This document shows, piece by piece, positions 32,817 to 55,235 of a stretch of 64,000 nucleotides of DNA. Position numbers and translations under genes: made by a program. The notes under the pieces were generated by a model. The model was not told where the DNA came from, did not search any database, and saw nothing but the letters and a program-made list of their open reading frames with translations. The number at the start of each line of letters is the position of its first letter. Within the stretch, counting starts at the first letter, position 1. This DNA comes from a virus (lineage: Duplodnaviria; Caudoviricetes). The stretch lies in the IMG/VR virus record IMGVR_UViG_3300021400_000529, positions 64,001 through 128,000 of that record. The stretch is one strand, 5' to 3'.

Positions 32817-35800
32817 ATGGGTGCAAGAAAGGATTATGTAATAAATGTTTCACTAGATGGAGATGCTAGTGGACTTAAACCATTACAAGATAGCCTAAAA
32901 CAAATAGAAGACAAGGCAGAAAGCATCAACACACTGGATATAGGAGTTGGTGTCCATGTAGATGGTAACTTTGAAAAAGTACTCAACAACATAGAAGGAC
33001 ACTTAAGTAGCATCTCCAAAACAGTTGAAGCAAGAGTAAATGTTGGCGGAAACTGGGACCGAGAACTGAAAAACATAAGAACACTCAGTGAAGGTATAAT
33101 ACAAGAACAAGACCTTAAAATCCAAGTAGACACACATAATGCTGAACGAGGATTCAAAGAAATTCGTGAAGCTGTAGGATCAACCATCCGAGAAATAGGA
33201 ACACTCAACACTATGAATACCATAGATATGAGTTCTGGAATAGTCAGAGGATTTCAAAGTGTTAACAATGAAATTAGCAAAACAAGGGATGCCTTATCAA
33301 CACTTGGAAGTAGTGGTGGAAGTGATGTAGGAAGAAAAATTGCTAATGACTTTAATGATGCAGCTAACCAAGTAGGGAACATACAGAAAAACCTTAACAA
33401 TCTAAAAGCACCACAAATTGATATGGGAGCATACTATGGAAGTTATGATCAATTGGGTCATTTGAATATGGGTGCTGTTGGTGGTAGTCGTATACTTTCC
33501 ATGCTTGGATTGAATGGATTTAGAAGTCTTACGTGGGGTAATGCTTCCACAGAACAAACCAACATGATTCTCTCCAAAAAAATGGATAGGGACGACATAG
33601 CAAAGGGAACTGGATATTATCTTGCTGGTAAATCCTATGAAGGTGGAACGGATACTATTACCCACGCTGTTGCTCAAAGAAGAACTGTCAGGAACCCTGA
33701 CCTTATTGCTCAATTGTATGCGTTTAAACAAGCTACTGGTGCTACTAATGAACAGTTAATGACCAACGTGTTTGGTAATGAGGAAGACCTCGAATATGGT
33801 AGTGGCAGTGGTGTAGACATTATCGCAGCATTTGGAGAAAACGTGGCTTTGCAGACAGGTAGTGAACAACTTGGTACAAGTGCAATGTTCGACCTTGCTA
33901 AAGCATTTGGTGGTCAATATGCTGCTGTAGATCAATATGGTATCAGTGAGGAATCACTTAAAAGAGCGGGGTATGACCCTAAGAAAGACAAAGATCATAA
34001 AGATGTTGAAGGATACTTGGCAGCTGTTGGTAAAATTATTGGTGCTGATGCTCCGAATGAGTTGATGGATACTACTGAGGGTGGTTTAACTCAGGTTAGG
34101 AAGAGATTCCACCGTGCTGGTAGGGAAATCGGTCAACTTATGATGGGACCAGTTGATTTCTTATCCAACCTTTTCCTACGATTTGACACTAAAGATTTAA
34201 ACTTATTCGGTTTCAACATTCCTAAAGGTACATTCACAAAGGCATTAATTGGTATTACTGGACTTGTATCGGCTATTGGTCCATTTCAGGAAACATTGAA
34301 TGCTGTTCATCAAACCTTTGACAAAGTAACGGGTGCCATGAAAACAGCTGTTACTGGTGTGGGAAACCTTACTGAACGAATAGTGGCATTAGGTAATGCA
34401 AGTAAAGCTTCTGAATTCAGAGAACTTGGTGCTAAAGGAATACTTGCTCGTGAGGAATATGAAAGATTACATCCAACAGAAGTAATGGATGCTCGATTAT
34501 CACAGATTCAAAGTAAACGTGGTGTTCATGACTACAATGATTTTGACATAGACCGTAGTGATATGACTTGGAGTCAGAAACGAAGAACTAAAGCTGGACG
34601 AAACCTTGACTCATTAATCTATGACCTTGAGGGTGGTATGGATGAGAAAACACGCCACGAAATAATAATGCAAGCCCAACGCCAATCTGCTGATGAAAAA
34701 ACAGTTAACGAATGGAAGAAAAGAGCCAAAGAAAGAGGTGAACACTTCAAGATGGACCGGATGGGTGCCGGTCAATACATTGAAGCGGAACTATTAAAAG
34801 ATTGGGAACATGGTAAAAAGAATGAAATAAGTGAACTTTCCAGTTGGCAGAAACTCAAAAGGGGTGCTAAAGGTAGTTTCAAACCACAGACAACTGCTTT
34901 CTCTAAAGCAATGAAAACTGAGATGGACAAATACTCTGAGGATTCACGATGGAATGTTATAAAGAAAAATACTGTTGGAAGATTTAAGGGAGCAAAATCT
35001 GGTTTGAAATCCATGACTGGTAAGGGTGGTTTCATCAATTCTTTCAAAAGTTTGGGCAGTGTTCTTGGTGGTGTTGTAAGTGCCCTTAACCCTGTCACCA
35101 TAGCCTTTTATGCATTGATGGGTGTTCTCGGAATAATTGGTGGAACATTAATGTATGCTTATGCTAACTTTGAATCAGTCCGTGAAAAGATTGGATTGTT
35201 ACAAGAGAAATTTGGTAAATTAATGGATTCCATATTCTATCTTGTAGGAGATATTCTCGGATTTATCAGTGGTTCTGGTGAAGGAGGTAAGTCTGGCCTT
35301 GAAACTGGTGTTGGCCGTGCTATAAATGTGGTTAATGATTTAATTGATGTGCTCTATGATGTTATACAAGCCATTACTGGCCGTGATGTTGAAAGAGAAA
35401 AGAAAGCTGAACCATTAAGAAAACAATTTGATGATACATGGAAAAGTATCAAAGAAGAGGAAGAAAAGAATGGTGGTCCTCACACGGCAAGTCGTGATAA
35501 GTATCAGAAACTTGTTAACACATCAGACCAACTAAGAATGTATGACCCATCTTATGTTAATGAAGAAAAATTAAAAGAGATGGGATTATATGGCGAAGGG
35601 TACACTGATTCTAAAGGTACTACTTTGGCTGAACGTTTACTTACTCCTGCTGCGGATAGGAATCCTAATGATGATATAACTGAACAGTATAGTTATCTTG
35701 AGAAAGTTTTACCAGAACTTAAAGAGGAAGGAGTTACTTTTACTGAAGATGATAAGAAGAAAATAGCGGAATCGCTTAAGGATCCGGAAAATCTTCGTAA

Positions 35801-37544
35801 ATTTGACAGTGCCGTTGGAGATATAAAAGCACATAATAAAGTAGCACATGCTGGTAAAGATTGGGATGATACTGAATATGCTAAGTCTAATAGTGTATTT
35901 GATTCAGATAATACAGATGACAGAAAACCTGGAGATAGTGCATTAGGTAGGATTGTTGATCCTATACTGACAGTATTAGACGCAATTAAATGGATAACTA
36001 TGGCTATTCTTGCGGCAATAGCTGTTGATAAAGCTTTAAATATTTTGAACAGTATTGCTCGTAATGGTGGTGTTCGTGGTGCCATTGATGAGTACTTAGA
36101 GAAAGAGTTACCTGACTTATATCCTGAAGCAAAGGATAGATGGGAGAAACATAGAAACCATGGTGGCTCAGATGACATTCCTTCCGGCAAGAAAAAACCA
36201 GGAACTAAAACTAAAAATAAACATCCTGGTGGTGTTGACCCTGATAAAAAAACAAAGATTGACCCTAATAAGTCGATGGATGATGTTGCTGATGAGCTTC
36301 ATGATTTAGCAGAAGAAACCAAGAAAAACACTAAAAAACATGGTAAAAGTCGTGCTAACAGATTTTTAGATAGTGGTATTGGTAAACGATTATTCCCTGA
36401 GGGCAGTAGAAGGAAAGGGGTGTTTAACAGAATACGTGGAATTAATTCTGAAAGTATTGGTACTGGACTGGTAAGTCTTGGAAGAGATATTGAAGCCAAG
36501 GGTGGTTTAACCAATTATGTTAAAGATTTGGAAAAAGTTAAATCACTTACTGGTTGGATTGAAAAGAAATTACCTCATCTTACTAATTTCTTTAAAGGTG
36601 AAGGGTTTAAGAATTTTGTTTCAAGCATTAAAAATGGATTATCATCTATTGGAAAACATCTTCATCTTACTGGTGAGGGTGGATTATTTGGAAAAATCCT
36701 TGCTAAATTTGGTTTAGATAAGGGTGGTGGAAGTGTTATTTCCAAGATACTATCTAAGATTGGTGGTAAAATCTTTTCAAGAGGACTTGTTGGAGCAATT
36801 CCTATTATTGGTCAGATTATAGATGCATTGTGGTTGGCTTGGGATTTAACCTCAATGATTGGTGATTTCTTACATTCTATGGGTGTTCCTGAATGGATTA
36901 TTGAGATGATTATGCCTTTAAGAATTATTCAGAATCATTGGAATGATATTATTAATGCTGCCACAGGTTTTGGTCAATGGCTTACTAATGGTCTTAGAAG
37001 TATAGGATTGGATGCTCTTGCTGACGGTCTGGAATGGTTATGGCAGAAGATTGTTGAAATATATAATGGTATTCAAAATATTCCTGTTATTGGTTGGCTT
37101 ATTCCGGGTGACCCTATTGAAACTGACGGTGGTGCTAATGAAACTGGAAGTGTTGCTAAGGAAACTAGTGAAAACACTACGGCTACAACGGAAAGTATAA
37201 ATTCAACAAATGCATTGAATGATACACTTAATTCATCAACTTCACCTTCATTCAGTGGAACAAATACCACTAATGCTTTAGACCCTAATTATGGTGCCAA
37301 TACTCAAGTGGGTTATTCTTTGAATAATGTCAATACCAGTATGCAAGGTAATTTACAGAATCCTAATACAGTAAATAACACCAACAATACAAGTCCAATG
37401 GTGATAAACAATAACATGGATATTAGTGGAGTTACTGATGAGGAAGATCTTGGTAGGATGATTATGAATTATATTAATCAACATTTATTCTGGGATGCTC
37501 AAAGGGCTGGTAGGACAGTTGATAATAATCAGGGAGGATTCTGA
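32817..37544 (+). CDS. Tape measure protein
   Basis: 1575 aa, helical with hydrophobic stretches; follows the chaperone. Confidence 0.85.
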   Translation: MGARKDYVINVSLDGDASGLKPLQDSLKQIEDKAESINTLDIGVGVHVDGNFEKVLNNIEGHLSSISKTVEARVNVGGNWDRELKNIRTLSEGIIQEQDLKIQVDTHNAERGFKEIREAVGSTIREIGTLNTMNTIDMSSGIVRGFQSVNNEISKTRDALSTLGSSGGSDVGRKIANDFNDAANQVGNIQKNLNNLKAPQIDMGAYYGSYDQLGHLNMGAVGGSRILSMLGLNGFRSLTWGNASTEQTNMILSKKMDRDDIAKGTGYYLAGKSYEGGTDTITHAVAQRRTVRNPDLIAQLYAFKQATGATNEQLMTNVFGNEEDLEYGSGSGVDIIAAFGENVALQTGSEQLGTSAMFDLAKAFGGQYAAVDQYGISEESLKRAGYDPKKDKDHKDVEGYLAAVGKIIGADAPNELMDTTEGGLTQVRKRFHRAGREIGQLMMGPVDFLSNLFLRFDTKDLNLFGFNIPKGTFTKALIGITGLVSAIGPFQETLNAVHQTFDKVTGAMKTAVTGVGNLTERIVALGNASKASEFRELGAKGILAREEYERLHPTEVMDARLSQIQSKRGVHDYNDFDIDRSDMTWSQKRRTKAGRNLDSLIYDLEGGMDEKTRHEIIMQAQRQSADEKTVNEWKKRAKERGEHFKMDRMGAGQYIEAELLKDWEHGKKNEISELSSWQKLKRGAKGSFKPQTTAFSKAMKTEMDKYSEDSRWNVIKKNTVGRFKGAKSGLKSMTGKGGFINSFKSLGSVLGGVVSALNPVTIAFYALMGVLGIIGGTLMYAYANFESVREKIGLLQEKFGKLMDSIFYLVGDILGFISGSGEGGKSGLETGVGRAINVVNDLIDVLYDVIQAITGRDVEREKKAEPLRKQFDDTWKSIKEEEEKNGGPHTASRDKYQKLVNTSDQLRMYDPSYVNEEKLKEMGLYGEGYTDSKGTTLAERLLTPAADRNPNDDITEQYSYLEKVLPELKEEGVTFTEDDKKKIAESLKDPENLRKFDSAVGDIKAHNKVAHAGKDWDDTEYAKSNSVFDSDNTDDRKPGDSALGRIVDPILTVLDAIKWITMAILAAIAVDKALNILNSIARNGGVRGAIDEYLEKELPDLYPEAKDRWEKHRNHGGSDDIPSGKKKPGTKTKNKHPGGVDPDKKTKIDPNKSMDDVADELHDLAEETKKNTKKHGKSRANRFLDSGIGKRLFPEGSRRKGVFNRIRGINSESIGTGLVSLGRDIEAKGGLTNYVKDLEKVKSLTGWIEKKLPHLTNFFKGEGFKNFVSSIKNGLSSIGKHLHLTGEGGLFGKILAKFGLDKGGGSVISKILSKIGGKIFSRGLVGAIPIIGQIIDALWLAWDLTSMIGDFLHSMGVPEWIIEMIMPLRIIQNHWNDIINAATGFGQWLTNGLRSIGLDALADGLEWLWQKIVEIYNGIQNIPVIGWLIPGDPIETDGGANETGSVAKETSENTTATTESINSTNALNDTLNSSTSPSFSGTNTTNALDPNYGANTQVGYSLNNVNTSMQGNLQNPNTVNNTNNTSPMVINNNMDISGVTDEEDLGRMIMNYINQHLFWDAQRAGRTVDNNQGGF

Positions 37545-37609: not shown

Positions 37610-38485
37610 ATGGCAATATATGGACCAGACTATAATAAATATGCTCTTGATAATACTTCTTATCAAAGTTATGCTATTGATGAGCATAAACCGTGCTTTT
37701 ATATTAATGGACATAATTTTCAGATAGGAACTAATGCGGAGAGTAAACCTGAGATAAATCTTGTTGAGAATAAGATGTTTGTTGCAGGTAAGAGTTGGGG
37801 TTACACGGATATTCAATGGACTAACTTTAGTGGAACAACCTTGGATATTGAAGTTTATTCAAGAACTTATGAACTGTATCGTGGTGATCCGGTTCAACCG
37901 GCTAATGGTGGTATATCTGATTTTTATAGTGTGGGTAAAACACCTCATGCTGTGTTGAAGTATTGGGCTGAAACTTTCACGGTTTGTCATATTGAAACAA
38001 ATCTTCATGCTTTTGAACCTGGAGATTATGTGATTAAGGATATTAGTCAGAGAAATCCTGATGCTGATTTTGTTGTTACAAAGTTAACACTTATTCAGTA
38101 TGAACGCCCTGGTGAAATTGAACAGACTTATCATACTAACTTAACTATTACTCCTAAGAGTACTGCTTATCTTACTGCTCAAGTCAGTGAAGTTGAAAAG
38201 TTGGATAAGCATGCTCAATCTTGTAATTGTGATTCTGATACTCCGAGTGAGGAGTGTAATGCTACAAGTAATGATGAAGTTGCTATTGTTCAAAGATATT
38301 TGCAACAGTGGGGTTATTTTCCTAGTTATGTCCGGGGTGTTGGTAGAATACAGATTAATGGAAAATTTTGTTATCATACAACTCAAGCATTGAAAAATTT
38401 TCAGAAAAGTAGAGGTATTGAGATTACTGGAGCATTTGATGAAACAACAAAGAAAGAATTTGTAAAGAAATTACAGGGAATATAA
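37610..38485 (+). CDS. Tail-tube initiator-like protein with C-terminal PG_binding_1-like domain
   Basis: Follows the tape measure; C-terminus VAIVQRYL..WGY...NGKF...T.QALKNFQ...GI.ITG.FD..T. Confidence 0.6.
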   Translation: MAIYGPDYNKYALDNTSYQSYAIDEHKPCFYINGHNFQIGTNAESKPEINLVENKMFVAGKSWGYTDIQWTNFSGTTLDIEVYSRTYELYRGDPVQPANGGISDFYSVGKTPHAVLKYWAETFTVCHIETNLHAFEPGDYVIKDISQRNPDADFVVTKLTLIQYERPGEIEQTYHTNLTITPKSTAYLTAQVSEVEKLDKHAQSCNCDSDTPSEECNATSNDEVAIVQRYLQQWGYFPSYVRGVGRIQINGKFCYHTTQALKNFQKSRGIEITGAFDETTKKEFVKKLQGI

Positions 38486-38540: not shown

Positions 38541-38987
38541 ATGGCAGAAAATAATACAGCTGATAGAAATGAAGATTGGTCAATTACTCTAAATGAAAAC
38601 CCAACAAATGATACTGGAAATGGTGGAGTAACAACCGAGGAAACCGAGGATGGACCAGTTGAAAATAAATATAATGATATGGACCCTTACTGGACTCCAA
38701 AGGAACAGGAAAGGGAATTTTCATCAGACACACCTGATGTTCGTATTTATATTAGTAGAGAAATTGTTCCAGAATCAACAGAAGAAGGAGAAGAAGGAAC
38801 TGGGGGTGAAGAAGGAAAAGTCACAACTCTTGAAGAAGCAATTGAAATTAATAGGAATTTGGCTGAAATATATTCCAAAGACCCTGATATAAACAATAAT
38901 AATACTTCTGTTGTTAAATTAAAAGGTGAGCAAATACTTGCTATGAATGCTATTGATAAACTGGATTTGAAGAATGCACCTAAATAA
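38541..38987 (+). CDS. Acidic protein with MxENN...W..TL leader
   Basis: N-terminus MAENNTADRNEDWSITL matches the three downstream paralogues; AAGGTGA RBS. Confidence 0.6.
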   Translation: MAENNTADRNEDWSITLNENPTNDTGNGGVTTEETEDGPVENKYNDMDPYWTPKEQEREFSSDTPDVRIYISREIVPESTEEGEEGTGGEEGKVTTLEEAIEINRNLAEIYSKDPDINNNNTSVVKLKGEQILAMNAIDKLDLKNAPK

Positions 38988-39010: not shown

Positions 39011-41314
39011 ATGAGTGAAGGAGATGGAAGTAGTGGAACATGGGGAAGTTGGGAAGTAAAACATAAAGTATTTGTTTCTGCCGACCGAACTGGTGGTGCT
39101 GATTCACTTAAAAATGAAATTGCAAGTATTATCCAACAAGCGGGTCATGAAGTTATTAATGGTGAAGTTTCACCAGATGGAGAGAACCATGGGATTAATG
39201 GTGCTTCAGATACTACCTTCTTTTATGTGGCTAACGGTATTGACCCTGATACTATTGCTGAATATCATATGGAAAGTGATTCGACAGGGTGGAGAGGACC
39301 AAACAAGAATGCTACCAATTGTAATATAGTTGTGGGTTGGTGGACTAGTGGTGGCGGTGCTTGTACAATGGCTAACATTAACAAAACACCCATTTTTCAT
39401 GCTTGGGATACTTATTGGAGTAATAATACTCTAAGAGCGTATACTGAGAAATTTAAGAATGCTGCTGATATAGTTTCACAGTTACCTAATGGTGGTGCTG
39501 TTGCTGGTCCTGATGCTCAAAGTCTTGCTAATGGTTTTCTTAGTGGTCATGGTAGTGGTGGTGCGGCAACTGGTGTTAATGTTGTTGAAGGACATATTTT
39601 CAGTCATGAAGGTGAAACACCACAATTCTGGAATAGTGAAACATACACACCATATTATCAGATTGACTTCATAAATTTCACTATGGAAGATGAATATCCA
39701 CGTGTTAGAACAGCAACCTTTGAAACAACGGAAAATATTGACCTTACTCAAGGTAGGGTTGCTGTTCTCATTGCTGGTGATTGTAATGATTTTGGTGGAA
39801 TAATCATTAAAAAGGATTATGATTCCAAAAAGAAAATTTATAAGTACCAGTGTCAGGGTTTTATGGAGAGAATTATGGCTTCTCCAGTTTATGTTGTGGC
39901 TAATGGTGGTCATACAGCACATCATCTTATAAGTGAGTATCTGGCCAGTGTAGGATTACCTTCAGTTAATTTACTTGAACCGGATGAGTATGATGTGTTT
40001 ATTGATGAGTTTACACAGGAAATGTTGAAAGCTGAAGCGGACATGGAAGATTCTGTGGAAAACTTCAATGCACGTAATGACACCAAAATAGATACAGACA
40101 AAGTCACTGGTTACTACGGTCAGAAAAAAGAAGGTGAAGAGGAATCAGAGGAAAGTTCTGAAAGCAGTGATGAAAATTCAGACAACAAAGTTCAACAACA
40201 AGAAACGGCCGGATTGATAATGACTGAAACGGAAAGTCATGATGATGACTATGAAGTAATAAACACATTTAAAGCCAAACCTGTAGGGATATATGATAAA
40301 ACAACTGGTGCAGATTTCATAAGAACACTCATCTTCGATTATGGAATTAATGTTGATTTCTATGGTGATATCAATGGAATTCCTCATTTTGATGTAATGG
40401 ACATGGAACAATGGAAAAACACAGGGTGGGTTATATCACCTGAGATGGGTTATTCCTCTGATTATGAAAGAACATTTGACATTACAGATGTTGTAACACA
40501 AGTTGGTGTTAAAAATATCCAAGCAATTAATGGTAATGGTGAATTATACACAAGTAAGGAATTGTTGGGTGTTGATCTTGAAAGATTCGTTGGTCGTATG
40601 GGAACAATCGTAGATAACCCTAATGAGAAACAAGGTGGTGCTGCACAGACTGACCAGATACAGTCAATGTATCAAGATGCTGAGGGTAACCAATATAATG
40701 AATCACAAGTAATCTCTACTAATGGTGAACCGAGTTGTAGTCATTGTAAGGAAGCTAATGGTGGAACACAACCTGAGATGAAAAAGTATCAGAAATATTG
40801 GGTGAACAAGTGTCCTGGTTGTGGTAAGGGTGTTGGTAGTGAATCATCTGATTCTAGTTCATCGTCAAGTAGTAGTGATAGTAGTGGTAGTTCGGCATCT
40901 TCTAGTTCATCAAGTAGTAGTTCGACAACATCAACTGGTCCATTGGAAAGTAAATCAGAAGGGCATGGTAAAACAGTTTGTAAGGAATGTAAATTGGAAT
41001 ACTGTCAATTCTGTGGACATTGTTTAAGTGGAAATTCGTATCAGTTAACTGAAGTTACTAAAATTACGGCAGTCAGTGGTACAACAAGTGCTGGAACTTC
41101 AACGGGTGTTACTGCTGGTTCTACATCAGGAAGTAGTGGAAGCAGTAGTGGAAGTAGTAGTAGAAGAAGTAGTGGTGGAAGTTCAAGTTCGGCTAAAGCA
41201 CCATCTGTTACTCCTGGTAAAAGTGCTAAAAGAAGAGCTTCAGAATATAATGAGGCTAAAAAAGCAGAATATGATAGAATGTACAGAAAAACAAAAAGTA
41301 TCATGGGACATTAA
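39011..41314 (+). CDS. Baseplate hub-like protein with Cys-rich zinc-binding C-terminus
   Basis: Hub-like FGGII....Y.....YKYQC.G and FDITDVVTQV segments; several CxxC pairs; Ser-rich linkers. Confidence 0.55.
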   Translation: MSEGDGSSGTWGSWEVKHKVFVSADRTGGADSLKNEIASIIQQAGHEVINGEVSPDGENHGINGASDTTFFYVANGIDPDTIAEYHMESDSTGWRGPNKNATNCNIVVGWWTSGGGACTMANINKTPIFHAWDTYWSNNTLRAYTEKFKNAADIVSQLPNGGAVAGPDAQSLANGFLSGHGSGGAATGVNVVEGHIFSHEGETPQFWNSETYTPYYQIDFINFTMEDEYPRVRTATFETTENIDLTQGRVAVLIAGDCNDFGGIIIKKDYDSKKKIYKYQCQGFMERIMASPVYVVANGGHTAHHLISEYLASVGLPSVNLLEPDEYDVFIDEFTQEMLKAEADMEDSVENFNARNDTKIDTDKVTGYYGQKKEGEEESEESSESSDENSDNKVQQQETAGLIMTETESHDDDYEVINTFKAKPVGIYDKTTGADFIRTLIFDYGINVDFYGDINGIPHFDVMDMEQWKNTGWVISPEMGYSSDYERTFDITDVVTQVGVKNIQAINGNGELYTSKELLGVDLERFVGRMGTIVDNPNEKQGGAAQTDQIQSMYQDAEGNQYNESQVISTNGEPSCSHCKEANGGTQPEMKKYQKYWVNKCPGCGKGVGSESSDSSSSSSSSDSSGSSASSSSSSSSSTTSTGPLESKSEGHGKTVCKECKLEYCQFCGHCLSGNSYQLTEVTKITAVSGTTSAGTSTGVTAGSTSGSSGSSSGSSSRRSSGGSSSSAKAPSVTPGKSAKRRASEYNEAKKAEYDRMYRKTKSIMGH

Positions 41315-41354: not shown

Positions 41355-42434
41355 ATGCCCGAAAACAATGCAGCAAATCCTGATGAAGAATGGGACACTA
41401 CATTGAGTGCTGGTGAGGAAGCTTCTGGTGAAGGAGAAACAGAAGAAGAAGAAAACACGGCAGAAGATGTTGCTCAAAACAATCCTGAAGATAATAAGAA
41501 GTTGTCCGAAATTGTTATGTCGGAACAACTTAGAAAGACTTTTGAGTTGAAACTTACTATTCCTCGCATTCTTAAGAAATTACATACTAATCAATTCTTT
41601 TTCATAGAAGTTAGTGATGAGTTCTATGAAACCAATTATCCATCAATAATTAAAGCTATTGCTAATAAGAAATTTGCAAGGTTCGCTGGTTTTGAAAAAG
41701 GGAGATTCTTTGTTGAGAAAGTAGAGGAAAAAGGGGGAATGGATGGATGGTCAACCACCATTACCTTAAATCCTATTCCACCGAGTCTTGCTATTTACAG
41801 TAAGATGCAAAAAGATGCTCAGAAGGCTTTGGTTCATGCCATCAACATGGAATTAAGATTGCTTGGCGGTGGTGGAACTGGTGGTAGTCCTGTTAATGCT
41901 TCTGGTCAAGATTGTAATCCTAGTGATGGTCATGAAACACATCATTGGGGTGGAAAACATAGACAATATCCTCCAGTTTGTACACCTGAAAGTAAGGTAA
42001 TTAGAGGAAATAGTAATAGACAATATGCTAAAGATACTGCTCAATATGCTGGTAGTAGTAAACAGTTGGTGGAATATGTTGCGAGTCAGTGTAGTTATGT
42101 GCGGTATCCTGATAATCCTCGTGGTGAAGAGTGTTGTCCTGAAAAGTTATGGACTGGTAGTAGACCTATTGGAATTAATTGTGCGGATAGTGCAAGGTTG
42201 TTGAAGTGTATACTTGATGTGAATGGTTATCAAAGTATTACTTGTCATATTCCTGGCCATTTTTTTAATGCTATTTGGGAGAATGGTGGTTGGACTATTT
42301 GTGATATTTGTCAAACAACTTGTTATGGTAAATCTGCTTATGGTCATGCTAATCATGAGGATGAGGGTGATTGTCATCCTATTGGTACTTGGGACAATCC
42401 TTTGACTGAAGGATTTATTACTGGTGATTGGTAA
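41355..42434 (+). CDS. Tail cassette A: constant N-terminus plus transglutaminase-like (PeiW-type) cysteine peptidase
   Basis: GINCADSARL, PGHFF and WTICD give a C-H-D triad; about 175 N-terminal aa shared with cassettes B and C. Confidence 0.7.
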   Translation: MPENNAANPDEEWDTTLSAGEEASGEGETEEEENTAEDVAQNNPEDNKKLSEIVMSEQLRKTFELKLTIPRILKKLHTNQFFFIEVSDEFYETNYPSIIKAIANKKFARFAGFEKGRFFVEKVEEKGGMDGWSTTITLNPIPPSLAIYSKMQKDAQKALVHAINMELRLLGGGGTGGSPVNASGQDCNPSDGHETHHWGGKHRQYPPVCTPESKVIRGNSNRQYAKDTAQYAGSSKQLVEYVASQCSYVRYPDNPRGEECCPEKLWTGSRPIGINCADSARLLKCILDVNGYQSITCHIPGHFFNAIWENGGWTICDICQTTCYGKSAYGHANHEDEGDCHPIGTWDNPLTEGFITGDW

Positions 42435-42487
42435 AATCTATGATTAAATATTTTATCTTTTTTTTGTGATGTGAAGAGTTGTTGGTT

Positions 42488-42739
42488 ATGGATAAAAAGT
42501 TAAGAGATGCTTTGGTAACAAACATAAAGTTACATTTACTTAAACAGGATTGGAAGTATATTGATTATATGTTGGAAGAGGTATACTTGTATAATCGTAA
42601 GGGTACTAAAATGATTGTTATTAAACCGTTACCTGATGCTGTTGCCACTATGCAATTTTATGCTATTAATGGTGCTTTTGCTGGTGATGTGATTGATTGG
42701 GAAAATGTTCAAAGTAATGGGGAATTAATAGATGCCTGA
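42488..42739 (+). CDS. Small partner protein A
   Basis: Homologous to partners B and C (IKLHL...ID.ML.E.Y ... MQF..NG.F....WE.V...G). Confidence 0.7.
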   Translation: MDKKLRDALVTNIKLHLLKQDWKYIDYMLEEVYLYNRKGTKMIVIKPLPDAVATMQFYAINGAFAGDVIDWENVQSNGELIDA

Positions 42740-43718
42740 GAATAATACTGCTACTTCTGATGAAAATTGGGATACCACTCTTAGTGAGGGAGCAGAAGCT
42801 TCTGGTGAAGGAGATGGAGAAGAAACTGATGAAACCAACACGGCAGAAGATGTAGCACAGAATAATCCGGAGGATAATAAGAAGTTATCTGAATTGGTTA
42901 TGTCGGAACAGTTAAGGAAAACATATAACCTTAAATTAATGATTCCACGTATATTGAAAGGTTTAAATACTAATCAATTCTTTTTTATTGAAGTTGCTGA
43001 TGAGTTCTATGAAACTAACTATCCCGAAATAATTAAGGCTATTGCTAATAAGAAATTTGCCCGTTTTGCCGGATTTGAAAAAGGAAGATTCTTTGTGGAA
43101 AAAGTTGAGGAAAAGGGTGGTATGGATGGTTGGAGTACCACCATAACACTTAATCCAATACCACCATCATTAGCTATCTACAGTAAGATGAAGAAGGATG
43201 CTCAGAAAGCCCTTGTACAAGCAATTAACTGGGAACTTTCACTTGCTGGTGGTGGTGGAACAGGAAATGTAAATGCTACTGGTGATGATTGTACGGAAAC
43301 CTTAGAAATTTCAACAACTACCTTTGGAGATGAATCATTTGAAAAATGTGCTCAAACAGTAATTGGGAATAGTAGTGCTAATTATGCTCAAGCAGTGTCT
43401 AGTCTTAGTTGTGAGGATGCGATAAAAAGTATTGAATACAGTTATCATGATCATATGAACAATCTTGTTTGTCCTCAGAAACTGGCTGAAAGTTGGCCGA
43501 AAATTTATGCTAATTGTGCTGATCATTCAAGGTTGGTTAAGTGTATATGTGATGTTAAGGGTGTTCCTTGTGCTATTTTTCATGGAAGTAGTCACTATTG
43601 GAATTATGTTAAGATTAATGGTAAATGGGAGAGTGTTGATTTATGCACTCCTAATAATAATACATGGGATGGTCATCTGAGAAATACTGCTGGTTGGAAT
43701 GCTCGTGGAAAGAAATAA
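42732..43718 (+). CDS. Tail cassette B: constant N-terminus plus transglutaminase-like peptidase
   Basis: ANCADHSRL, SHYW and WESVD triad. Confidence 0.7.
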   Translation: MPENNTATSDENWDTTLSEGAEASGEGDGEETDETNTAEDVAQNNPEDNKKLSELVMSEQLRKTYNLKLMIPRILKGLNTNQFFFIEVADEFYETNYPEIIKAIANKKFARFAGFEKGRFFVEKVEEKGGMDGWSTTITLNPIPPSLAIYSKMKKDAQKALVQAINWELSLAGGGGTGNVNATGDDCTETLEISTTTFGDESFEKCAQTVIGNSSANYAQAVSSLSCEDAIKSIEYSYHDHMNNLVCPQKLAESWPKIYANCADHSRLVKCICDVKGVPCAIFHGSSHYWNYVKINGKWESVDLCTPNNNTWDGHLRNTAGWNARGKK

Positions 43719-43751
43719 TGGATAAATAATTTAATTTATGGTGTGATTGTT

Positions 43752-44018
43752 ATGAAAGTAAAACCTTCAACTATTGAAATATTAAAAACACAAATAAAAC
43801 TACATATATCTTCTGAATATTATGATAAATTAGATTCTATGTTAAAAGAGGCTTATATTTTAAATGAAGGAAATGAGAATTTGATTTGTCTACGTTCTTT
43901 TGGTGGTGATGGGACTGGCAACATGTGTATGATGTTTTCAACAGTAAATGGTTCATTCTATGATACATGTCCATGGGAATATGTTAAACAAAAAGGAGAA
44001 CAAATAACTATAATCTAA
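43752..44018 (+). CDS. Small partner protein B
   Basis: IKLHI...LDSMLKEAY...MMFSTVNGSFY...WEYVKQKG. Confidence 0.7.
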   Translation: MKVKPSTIEILKTQIKLHISSEYYDKLDSMLKEAYILNEGNENLICLRSFGGDGTGNMCMMFSTVNGSFYDTCPWEYVKQKGEQITII

Positions 44019-44029
44019 TGGAGAAATAG

Positions 44030-44959
44030 ATGCCTGAAAATAATACTGCTACTTCTGATGAAAATTGGGACACTACATTGAGTGAAGGGGCAGAAGCTTC
44101 TGGTGAGGGTGAAGAAGGAGAAGAAACTGAAGAAAATACTGCTGAGGACGTTGCACAGAATAATCCCGAAGATAACAAGAAATTATCAGAGATTGTTATG
44201 TCTGAACAACTTCGGAAAACATTTCAACTGAAATTGACAATTCCTCGTATTTTGGAAGAGTTGCATACCAATCAGTTTTTCTTTATTGAAGTTGCTGATG
44301 AGTTCTATGAAACGAACTATCCTGAAATAATTAAAGCAATAGCTTATACCAAGTTTGCCCGTTTCGCTGGATTTGAAAAAGGGAGATTCTTTGTTGAGAA
44401 AGTAGAGGAAAAAGGAGGAATGGATGGTTGGAGTACTACTATTACTTTAAATCCTATTCCACCCAGTTTGGCTATTTATTCGAAGATGCAGAAGGATGCT
44501 CAGAAGGCACTTGTACAAGCGATTAATGATGAGATTGCTTTGAGTGGTGGTGGTGGAACAGTTTCAAGTGGTAGTGTCAATATGCAAACACTTGATGAGA
44601 TATATTCTATTGCGGCTACTTTCACTTATGGTGGTGCTGGTACTGGGTTGAGTCCTGAAAAGGCTTGGGAGTATTATCAGGGTGGTGGAAGAGTTTTTGA
44701 TTGTTATGATTGTAGTAATTGGTTGTTTTATTGTTTGAGGGAAAAGGGTATTCCTTGTAGGATTGTACAAGGAGGTAGTCCTTCCAGTTTGAGTGGTACT
44801 CACAGGGTTGTTCAGATTAATGAAGGGGGTAGTTGGCATTGTCCTCAACAGGCTTGGAGTTTAACAACGAATTTGAAACCTTTTACTCCTGAGGATAAGT
44901 ATGGTCTTACTCCTTTGTTAACATTTGATGGTACTAATACGATTGAGGGTGGTAGTTAG
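44030..44959 (+). CDS. Tail cassette C: constant N-terminus plus transglutaminase-like peptidase
   Basis: FDCYDCSNWL, GIPCRIV and THRVVQ motifs. Confidence 0.7.
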   Translation: MPENNTATSDENWDTTLSEGAEASGEGEEGEETEENTAEDVAQNNPEDNKKLSEIVMSEQLRKTFQLKLTIPRILEELHTNQFFFIEVADEFYETNYPEIIKAIAYTKFARFAGFEKGRFFVEKVEEKGGMDGWSTTITLNPIPPSLAIYSKMQKDAQKALVQAINDEIALSGGGGTVSSGSVNMQTLDEIYSIAATFTYGGAGTGLSPEKAWEYYQGGGRVFDCYDCSNWLFYCLREKGIPCRIVQGGSPSSLSGTHRVVQINEGGSWHCPQQAWSLTTNLKPFTPEDKYGLTPLLTFDGTNTIEGGS

Positions 44960-44961
44960 AT

Positions 44962-45228
44962 TTGATAAGTGAAGATTTGATAGAATGGATAACACCTAAT
45001 CTAAAAATGAATTTAGAGGAAAAAGATTGGGTTTATATTGATGATATGTTCAGTGAATGTTATGAAACTGTAGAGAATGGTGAAAAGGTTGTTTCTTTGA
45101 AACCACCGGCTTCCTATAATCCACCGGAGGGTCAGATGAAATTGACGATGCAGTTTTCCATGTTGAATGGTTCATTTTATGGTGTGGATGATTGGGAATA
45201 CATAAAACATGTGGGTAAATTGTTATGA
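44962..45228 (+). CDS. Small partner protein C
   Basis: LKMNL...IDDMFSECY...MQFSMLNGSFY...WEYIKHVG. Confidence 0.7.
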   Translation: MISEDLIEWITPNLKMNLEEKDWVYIDDMFSECYETVENGEKVVSLKPPASYNPPEGQMKLTMQFSMLNGSFYGVDDWEYIKHVGKLL

Positions 45229-53495: not shown

Positions 53496-54542
53496 ATGAC
53501 AATAAATTGCAATACAATAAATATAAAGAAAGGAAGTAATGGAGATACTGTAAAGGAACTTCAAAAATATTTAAAATACTACAAATATTATGATAGCAAC
53601 ATCGACGGATCATGTGGTGACTACACAGTTTCTGCCATAAAACAATTTCAGAAAAGACATAACTTAATAGTGGATGGAGTATTCGGAAAACTTTCATGCC
53701 AAGCCAGTTACATCAACGGACACGATATAAGTGCATCCAATGAGGTAATACCAATAAACAACTGGAAGGACATTCAGAAAAGATACACTGAATATGTTAA
53801 AACCAATGGAAAAGAACCAAACATAATGTATATCGACAAGGAATATCCTTACGAACACATTACATTAGCAAAGTATAAGGAAATCAGTGGAAGGTATGAC
53901 AAATGGGTTAAAGAACATGGAAGCGACCCAACATACATGAACATAAACAAAACTACAACCACAAATACAACCAATACGACAACCAATTCCAACCAAACAA
54001 CATTTACCATCAATTACCTCTGTGAAAAGAGTGGAGGGAACTGTTTAGGACAGATAACGGGTTATCATTGTGGTCCTCACAGTATAAAACAATGTCTTAG
54101 GAAATTTGGAATAACGGGTTATTCTGAATCAACCATTGGTGGTTACGCTGGAACAACAAAAGCTGGTACAGGTCATGCAGGACTTGAAACAGCCATAGCC
54201 AAAATAGCCAGACTTGAGGGAATAACACTGAAAGTAGAATGGAAAAACTTCAGTGACCTCGGAAATACTGTGGCTGAAAGATTTAAAAAATATGGTGAAA
54301 TAATAACTTCTTCAAATAAGGCTTGTTTCTGGCATGAAATGTACAGAAATCAATATGGACACTATTCTCTTCCTAAAACCGTCAATACAAAAAGTGGAAA
54401 TTTGGTTATTGCCAACAGTTTAGGTAGTAAATGTTCTGCTCCAGCTTATTGTGGTTATATGGAAAATAGAAGCTTCAACACACAAAGGAGTTATCTTGCG
54501 GGAATCAGTCAGAAAAGTATTTGTATCATAACAAAAGTATAA
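53496..54542 (+). CDS. Endolysin: PG_binding_1-like domain, two pseudomurein-binding-like repeats and a C39-like (PeiR-type) peptidase
   Basis: KKGSNGDTVKELQ...DG.FG; repeats ..RY..YVK.NG.EP...YI; GQITGYHCGP, GHY and IANSLG. Confidence 0.8.
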   Translation: MTINCNTINIKKGSNGDTVKELQKYLKYYKYYDSNIDGSCGDYTVSAIKQFQKRHNLIVDGVFGKLSCQASYINGHDISASNEVIPINNWKDIQKRYTEYVKTNGKEPNIMYIDKEYPYEHITLAKYKEISGRYDKWVKEHGSDPTYMNINKTTTTNTTNTTTNSNQTTFTINYLCEKSGGNCLGQITGYHCGPHSIKQCLRKFGITGYSESTIGGYAGTTKAGTGHAGLETAIAKIARLEGITLKVEWKNFSDLGNTVAERFKKYGEIITSSNKACFWHEMYRNQYGHYSLPKTVNTKSGNLVIANSLGSKCSAPAYCGYMENRSFNTQRSYLAGISQKSICIITKV

Positions 54543-54548
54543 TTGATT

Positions 54549-54929
54549 ATGAGTAAAAAGGGTTCTCTTGAAGAAAGATATTTGGTTAACTTTTTAGAAG
54601 ATAATGGTTATGCTGCCACAAGGATTCCAGCAAGTGGTGGTGCTACAAAAAGTGACCGTCCAGATGTATTGGCTGGTAACGGTAAAAACTGTTATGCTTT
54701 TGAAGTGAAATCAAGTAAAAAAGACATAATATATATTCGAAAAGAACAGATTGATGAACTGTTACGGTTTAGTTTTAAATTTGGGGCGAAACCCTTTGTG
54801 TGTGTAAAATTTACAAGAAAACCATATACAATTATTAATGTCAATTCATTGGAAAGAACACCTAAAGGAAATTATAAAGTTAAACGTGAAAACATAATCC
54901 AAGGTATACTATTGGAAAACATAAAATAA
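54549..54929 (+). CDS. hjc: Archaeal Holliday junction resolvase
   Basis: KGSLEER, RIPASG, PDVLAG and FEVKS motifs. Confidence 0.9.
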   Translation: MSKKGSLEERYLVNFLEDNGYAATRIPASGGATKSDRPDVLAGNGKNCYAFEVKSSKKDIIYIRKEQIDELLRFSFKFGAKPFVCVKFTRKPYTIINVNSLERTPKGNYKVKRENIIQGILLENIK

Positions 54930-54932
54930 TAT

Positions 54933-55235
54933 ATGATAATGGAATTTAAGAAAATGAATATTGATTCACTGGTAATAAAATTAGCGGAAGAATATCCGAC
55001 GGAAACTGAAAAAGTTAGGGAGATAAAACTTTTAATCAAAGAAATTGAAGAAGAAAAAGATGTTACAAACAATATTGAAGCACTTCAACAGATATGTAAT
55101 GATTTGTATAACATTTCTTCTTCAGAGAATTTAATAGAATTACAAGTTATAATAAATGAATACAGGAACAAGTATGATGTGACGGATCCTCGTGAAATTA
55201 TTAATTGGGATAATGGTAGAGGATTTGTGCAATAA
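54933..55235 (+). CDS. Hypothetical helical protein
   Basis: Contiguous with hjc; 100 aa. Confidence 0.55.
   Translation: MIMEFKKMNIDSLVIKLAEEYPTETEKVREIKLLIKEIEEEKDVTNNIEALQQICNDLYNISSSENLIELQVIINEYRNKYDVTDPREIINWDNGRGFVQ

Follow-up and report, generated by a model that had tools for sequence, protein, structure and literature searches.

Tail-associated lysins (Tal) of Gram-positive phages such as TP901-1 and Tuc2009 are hub-borne lysins, with structural examples in the NF5 Tal (9m7n) and the 80alpha baseplate (6v8i). Here a 64,000-nucleotide stretch of viral DNA (the window; bases 64001–128000 of the 137,316-base-pair (bp) IMG/VR virus record IMGVR_UViG_3300021400_000529, judged 95% complete) was analyzed around three consecutive cassettes (41355–45228), each consisting of an enzyme gene (A, B or C) followed by a small partner gene (a', b' or c'). 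The enzyme proteins are probably the detached, enzyme-bearing arm of the baseplate hub in three copies, which would make them a tail-associated lysin that an archaeal myovirus has split and triplicated, a reading to which we assign a probability of about 0.65. As in Tal, a gp27-type hub is associated with a cell-wall hydrolase that follows a Gly-rich linker at the C-terminus, the genes come immediately after those for the tape measure and distal tail, and three enzyme copies are expected per trimeric hub; fused relatives of the locus, for example P0109 and P0111, have exactly the Tal architecture. In contrast to Tal, the enzyme arm here is a separate polypeptide with its own docking domain and an acidic leader; it occurs as three paralogues with different heads, each with a small partner gene; and it carries a pseudomurein-type cysteine peptidase in an archaeal virus.

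Three other described systems share parts of this organization. PeiW and PeiP (Peptidase_C71; 8jx4 and 8z4f), also from viruses of Methanobacteriales, have the same transglutaminase-like fold with an aligned nucleophile Cys (NC[AT]D) and His, and an Asp as third residue is found in head types A, B and E of the present family. However, sequence similarity is marginal (E 4e-4 to 9e-4 against the PDB and below the cut-off in Pfam), a hub module in A, B and C replaces the N-terminal pseudomurein-binding repeats (PMBR), and at least five diverged head types occur here, of which C and D are much shorter. The T4 gp27–gp5 complex is likewise a hub trimer bearing three wall-degrading domains through a docking domain and used at entry, but gp5 docks by an oligonucleotide/oligosaccharide-binding (OB) fold and continues into a beta-helical needle, and T4 has one lysozyme gene, with neither paralogues nor a partner. 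Polymorphic toxin/immunity and tail-fibre/chaperone cassettes share the constant N-terminus, the swappable C-terminal head and a small downstream gene that is co-duplicated; here, in contrast, co-variation between partner and head is loose and the partner is dispensable in relatives with the same heads. A hub-borne lysin for wall penetration is of a known kind. New are its archaeal, pseudomurein-type form, the separation from the hub, the triplication with shuffled heads on a module homogenized at the protein level, the orphan partner and a leader motif that co-varies. The literature searched, which did not cover the methanogen virus compendium of Medvedeva et al., contained no description of Pei-like enzymes borne on a hub. 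A tblastn search of B and of an 872-amino acid (aa) neighbor against 50,697 phage records returned nothing; in IMG/VR a single module sequence used as query matched nothing, and an alignment query gave one relative.

Three cassettes of constant and variable parts

Judging from its gene content, the virus is a contractile-tailed virus (~137 kb) of gut methanogens, Methanosphaera. Relatives of the cassette and hub proteins were found in public metagenome-assembled genomes named Methanosphaera sp. or Methanobrevibacter sp., and the module was found in two GTDB Methanosphaera genomes. Methanobacteriales have a pseudomurein wall, and from the names of these relatives the host wall is therefore taken to be pseudomurein.

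All genes in the window, and thus all features described below, are on the + strand, and the surroundings of the cassettes form the tail-tip gene block of a contractile-tailed virus. The six open reading frames (ORFs) of the original prediction were recovered at the same positions: gene A (41355–42434; ATG start in an ORF that opens at GTG 41343) with partner a' (42479–42739; about 83–86 aa, its stop overlapping the start of B), gene B (42732–43718) with partner b' (43743–44018; 91 aa, GTG start), and gene C (44030–44959) with partner c' (44962–45228; 88 aa, TTG start), the stop of which overlaps the start of the gene for a 1236-aa immunoglobulin (Ig)-rich fibre protein. The N-terminus that the three enzymes had been said to share before diverging was confirmed, with about 177 aa of B showing 91% identity to C (E 1e-102) and 87% to A (E 3e-98), and identity between A, B and C falling to 29–36% past the GGGG(T) linker. 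Each enzyme gene is indeed followed by a member of one small family, the three members being 30–38% identical in pairwise comparison, and the whole genome contains exactly three modules and three partners.

A count of cassettes across relatives, as the original prediction had proposed, gave three in some and one in others, with the same layout recurring. Complete three-cassette loci were found in the window, in L004, L006 and L007 and on contigs of 135,674 and 4,910 bp, and complete one-cassette loci in L005, L012 and L013. These relatives come from other samples, which rules out an assembly artefact as the source of the layout.

The docking module and its relation to the hub

The constant module occupies 41466–41888 in gene A, where it runs up to the Gly linker, 42849–43265 in gene B and 44147–44572 in gene C. 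In an AlphaFold model of B, for which an alignment of 58 sequences was used, the module (residues 46–171) is preceded by a disordered acidic leader of 45 residues and consists of one helix and two short strands, followed by a further pair of helices and a long hairpin that leads into a long final helix, with a predicted local distance difference test score (pLDDT) of 60–80. The stretch RFFVEK...TLNP, earlier quoted as the end of the constant part, is present but does not end it, since the long helix intervenes before the linker.

The likeness to the C-terminal part of gp27/gp44-type hubs that had been suspected from the sequence is borne out by this model, in which the constant part is predicted to adopt the fold of the last (fourth) domain of gp27/gp44/gpD hubs. 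An exhaustive structural search with model residues about 40–150 returned 13 chains with Z scores of 3.7–4.4, all of them baseplate hub or tail-tip proteins, and each match landed on the C-terminal hub domain of the matched protein. Specifically, the module aligned with residues 217–325 of the pyocin R2 hub (Z 4.2) and with residues 256–345 of the MuSo2 gp44-like protein (Z 4.0, root-mean-square deviation (rmsd) 2.5 Å, 83 aligned residues), with further matches to the AFP, Algoriphagus and diffocin hubs, to lambda J and to T1, Chi, JBD30, R4C, Pam3 and A-1(L). Among predicted viral structures (BFVD, searched with Foldseek) the module matched late control gene D/GPD proteins, a gp27 hub subunit and a 43-kDa tail protein with probabilities of 0.97–1.00, the matched proteins being small, and a structure search of the ESM Atlas gave clusters annotated as YqbQ/XkdQ, GPD and VgrG together with short proteins that pair the module domain with LysM, CW_7 or a transglutaminase core.

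The evidence that ties this module to the hub comes from fused relatives. A profile search of the module against 1.84 billion representatives gave 72 relatives (P0008 and 71 new ones), and about 27 of the 71 are long single chains that combine a hub core with the module and, in most, a peptidase head. The baseplate hub of the window (39011–41314; 767 aa), assigned from its structure model and hub matches, comprises a flavodoxin/CheY-like domain (about 17–183) and a gp27/gp44-type core (about 212–546), the remainder consisting of two zinc-ribbon-like CxxC clusters, a long Ser-rich linker and a basic C-terminal helix. Using VIA-align, its model matched the phiCD508 hub (9g8s_q; Z 9.3), the diffocin hub (Z 8.5) and Mu gp44 (Z 7.7), and Foldseek matches to hubs had probabilities of 0.99–1.00; the core aligns with known hubs as far as their C-terminal region, and the fused relatives hold the module on top of everything present in the window hub. 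This is illustrated by P0111 (799 aa), which matched the family of the window hub from the hub core through the zinc-ribbon region (probability 100, E 3e-143) and continues past the zinc ribbon with a Thr/Ser-rich linker, the module and a Pei-like head. Across relatives the domain orders were core–zinc ribbon–module–head, core–flavodoxin-like–module–head and core–module–zinc ribbon. The flavodoxin/CheY-like domain of the window hub showed Z scores of about 8 to cobalamin-binding and receiver domains, and in relatives a flavodoxin-like domain is found after the hub core, i.e. in permuted order.

The idea of a split hub, raised when the locus was first described, is thus supported by the many relatives in which the module is covalently part of a hub homologous to that of the window. 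The link between hub and lytic domain is covalent in about 27 relative clusters and is replaced by separate genes in the window, and these single chains of hub, module and peptidase argue that the cassette proteins are the enzyme arm detached from the hub. Each of them combines an acidic, disordered leader with its motif, a hub-type docking domain, a glycine linker and a Pei-like peptidase. By analogy with the fused forms, every subunit of the trimeric hub would receive one module, held in place non-covalently.

Docking may be aided by the acidic leader acting on the basic hub tail. The leaders (41355–41465 in A, with a net charge of about -16; 42732–42848 in B; 44030–44146 in C) carry a net charge of -12 to -18 over 45 residues, and the last 40 residues of the hub are basic (+5 to +10 in these genomes and +7 in the window hub). 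In their first 15–25 residues, the enzyme leaders share a motif with the N-terminus of a ~150-aa protein encoded immediately upstream of the hub; in the window this is a 148-aa protein (38541–38987), encoded between the wall-binding tail protein and the hub, with the leader motif in its N-terminal ~20 aa. The motif is genome-specific, with a common core of a hydrophobic residue, T or I, L, N or S, Q or E, and G, and it co-varies between leader and upstream protein across five genomes (the window, L004, L006, L007 and L013). The copies in the leader and in the 148-aa protein differ in codons, and conservation of the motif is therefore at the protein level. The shared motif is lacking in a sub-clade with 78–88-aa versions of the upstream protein (L005, L011 and L012). 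Taken as a whole, these features suggest that the leader may be a docking or loading peptide.

Alternatively, the module and peptidase could form a central tip complex, as T4 gp5 does under gp27, made of homotrimers, so that each particle carries one enzyme type and the population is mixed. In small relatives the single gene for module and peptidase lies directly between the hub and the sheath initiator, with no other tip candidate seen, and it is in this slot that PBSX-type phages encode XkdR; in addition, nothing in the docking modules distinguishes the paralogues in a way that would place one A, one B and one C in each trimer. We nevertheless regard a central tip as unlikely, since the module has a hub-domain fold rather than the OB-fold and beta-helix of known spikes, a long flexible linker tethers it to each hub subunit in the fused relatives, and a conserved 100-aa protein encoded immediately before the sheath initiator (54933–55235) may be the tip or needle protein of the window virus.

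Peptidase heads and their small partners

The three C-terminal domains (type A, 41889–42434; type B, 43266–43718; type C, 44573–44959) had been described as transglutaminase-like Cys-His domains, and matches of fold and profile to PeiW and PeiP confirmed that they are transglutaminase-fold, Pei-like Cys-His peptidases. The B head was modeled with pLDDT above 90 and aligned in VIA-align with the PeiW catalytic domain (8jx4; Z 7.4, rmsd 3.2, 112 aligned), PeiP (8z4f; Z 7.2) and BDI_1141 (Z 7.5). A profile of the head family searched against all PDB sequences matched only PeiP (E 4.1e-4) and PeiW (E 9.3e-4), with the NCAD of the family aligned on the NCTD nucleophile motif of Pei and its HY on the Pei GHY motif, and Cys262 and His288 (B numbering) were invariant across the 58 sequences. 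Scores against Pfam were lower: A reached 13.8 bits against PF12386 (Peptidase_C71), missing the gathering threshold of 22, and Peptidase_C71 was matched by 3 of the 58 family members (best E 4e-4) and Transglut_core by 12 of the 58, below or near its cut-off (E 0.004 for the C head). For this reason the heads are called Pei-like, as members of the transglutaminase-fold peptidase superfamily, and are not assigned to Peptidase_C71.

At least five head types (A–E) can be distinguished among the relatives. Types A, B and E have a Cys-His-Asp arrangement (NCAD...H[FY]...D) and an extra N-terminal subdomain, as in gene A (NCAD...GHF...CD, with 12 Cys) and gene B (C262, H288 and D303); type D is short, with Cys-His-Asp, and type C is represented in the window by DCYDCS...THR. 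No further copies of the five types were found elsewhere in the genome. Type-E heads were also seen fused to PG_binding_1/2/3, and not to the hub module, in the metagenomic proteins P0055–P0057 (440–550 aa), so that the same enzyme head is used elsewhere in a wall-binding, lysin-like format.

At infection, the peptidases would cut pseudomurein peptide cross-links locally and let the tube pass. Since PeiW and PeiP, the nearest characterized relatives, are known as lysis enzymes (PMC4592898), A, B and C might instead be soluble egress lysins that are not part of the virion, with the shared N-terminus serving regulation or export. This appears very improbable: the genes lie inside the tail-tip block and are fused to the hub in relatives, and a Pfam scan of A, B and C matched no PMBR, the hub module occupying the N-terminus instead. 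In addition, the genome encodes a separate candidate egress lysin (53496–54542) with PG_binding_1, a PMBR-like stretch that matched the PeiP repeats (E 1.5e-10) and a distinct catalytic domain that matched PDB entry 22oc_A ("P210"; E 5.6e-31), and this protein contains none of the five enzyme-head domain types. Heads without wall-binding repeats, alongside a separate lysin that has them, argue for entry rather than egress.

Several points weigh against the reading of A, B and C as a detached hub arm with Pei-like peptidases. The module resembles the hub fold only to a modest degree (Z about 4, with a pLDDT of 60–80 for the module), the whole genome gave no match to PF24032, PF21929 or PF05954 at E values up to 10, and the module profile matched neither the family of the window hub nor PDB sequences. 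Every Pfam match of the heads falls below the curated cut-offs, and the type-C head is short, with Cys and His only and no evident third catalytic residue. The role proposed below for the partner is based on its distribution and weak co-variation, the distribution being confounded by phylogeny. Finally, the location of A, B and C at the tail tip is a prediction, as are their docking, stoichiometry and mixed occupancy, and the substrate bond.

The partners are mostly acidic and form an orphan family. Fourteen columns are invariant among the three of the window and six across 13 members (K, E, Y, G, W and G); a word-based search gave 25 close members, none with a name, and searches of Pfam, PHROGs, the ESM Atlas and, by profile, the PDB gave nothing usable. 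The original prediction had each partner acting as an inhibitor, cap or chaperone of its own enzyme. Following toxin/immunity logic, the partner would mask the active site of its own peptidase until deployment, and several features are in line with this: the genes are strictly paired one to one, with stop and start codons overlapping or abutting, the partner is duplicated along with the enzyme in every cassette, the partners of type-B heads in three genomes have a GDG-containing insertion in common, and the partners W_a and L004_p2, both next to type-A heads, are 59% identical. However, heads that are 84–90% identical adjoin partners that are only 35–38% identical (the C head of the window compared with L006_2 and L004_1), the overall correlation between partner and head was weak (Spearman 0.21, Mantel p about 0.09, 13 pairs), and the same head types, either hub-fused or split without a leader, occur without a partner gene. 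The substrate also lies outside the membrane, so that a cytoplasmic inhibitor has no obvious need. Weak tracking of heads and absence from fused and leaderless relatives do not support a cognate inhibitor, and we consider this role unlikely.

Specifically, the partner gene is missing from the fused L009, from the leaderless split L014 and L015 and, apart from a doubtful 95-aa ORF, from L008, and the ~150-aa protein is missing from the same four. Small ORFs located after fused hubs were considered as partner homologues, a relationship left unproven by hhalign probabilities of 31% (L008) and 0.1% (L010). The joint occurrence of partner, leader and ~150-aa protein in one clade speaks more for a function in loading or assembly than for inhibition of a particular head. 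Most probably, the partner helps to assemble or load the detached arm and is specific to this clade.

Evolution of modules and heads

The sets and order of heads vary by genome (A-B-C, C-A-D, A-C-B, or E with A and C). In the module tree paralogues group by genome, with 9 label changes compared to a minimum of 8 and a shuffled mean of 17.2, whereas the head tree groups by type and paralogues from the same genome never cluster. When orthologues are compared, heads often resemble each other more closely than do the modules to which they are joined, as shown for L006_3 and L007_2, which share 89% identity in the heads and 65% in the modules, and synonymous difference was lower in the heads than in their own modules in 8 of 9 orthologous pairs (overall 0.50–0.69 compared with 0.64–0.90). 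It follows that heads were exchanged between viruses once the modules had diverged.

Within a genome (the window, L004, L006 and L007) the modules share 87–98% protein identity, yet their synonymous sites are randomized. The fraction of identical codons between paralogous modules is 0.35–0.55; codon usage predicts 0.48–0.50, comparisons between genomes gave 0.45, and Ser codons switch between the TCN and AGY families. Recent duplication or ongoing gene conversion as the source of module identity is ruled out by the random codons and Ser family switches, and the identity is therefore held at the protein level, which is what a single genome-specific socket that every paralogue has to fit would predict. 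The Gly linker was also considered as a conserved site of DNA recombination, and this was rejected, a 12-mer there being present in B and C only and not kept across genomes. In L007 the fraction of identical codons between modules (0.35–0.38) lies below the random level (about 0.45–0.49), which, in this small sample, hints at selection against recombinogenic DNA repeats.

Mixed loading of the hub would be possible because the docking modules are near-identical within a genome while the heads swap between viruses, and one particle may carry a mix of up to three enzyme specificities, which would widen coverage of bonds or wall chemotypes. A more elaborate picture, which we put forward tentatively and hold to be somewhat doubtful as a whole, is that of a plug-and-socket tail tip. 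The plug, i.e. the leader motif and docking module, would be kept identical in protein by selection and dissimilar in DNA, and would load any of at least five shuffled wall-cutting heads into three hub sockets, with the partner and the motif-sharing 148-aa protein as loading factors. Co-evolution of plug and socket would guard against mis-assembly when relatives co-infect a cell, and there would be as many heads as the threefold hub has positions.

The tail-tip block around the cassettes begins with the tape measure gene (32817–37544; 1575 aa), directly followed by that of a 291-aa protein ending in PG_binding_1 (37610–38485). This latter protein, in the XkdP/gpX position, has a bacterial-type PG_binding_1 although the host has pseudomurein, and it is kept in all relatives seen. 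The 148-aa protein, the hub, the three cassettes and three Ig-rich proteins come next, and the order continues with the lysin-like PG_binding_1 protein, an Hjc Holliday-junction resolvase (54543–54929) encoded inside the baseplate block, the 100-aa protein, Sheath_initiator and Baseplate_J. The gene order of the tail tip is the same in relatives; the fused and the small split forms show a tape measure, a PG_binding_1 protein, a hub with or without module and head, Sheath_initiator and Baseplate_J.

Passage through pseudomurein by tailed archaeal viruses is essentially unstudied because the known Pei enzymes have been treated as egress lysins, and the locus provides a concrete, testable candidate for an entry apparatus. 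The fused, split and triplicated forms of one hub arm amount to a natural experiment, and the pattern of modules, heads and partners is a clean case of repeated docking domains that are alike in protein and unlike in DNA. The locus and its relatives also provide an enzyme library, with five or more diverged peptidase heads of the pseudomurein type from viruses of gut and rumen methanogens; such enzymes are of practical interest for the specific lysis of methanogens (compare PeiR, PMC6189367).

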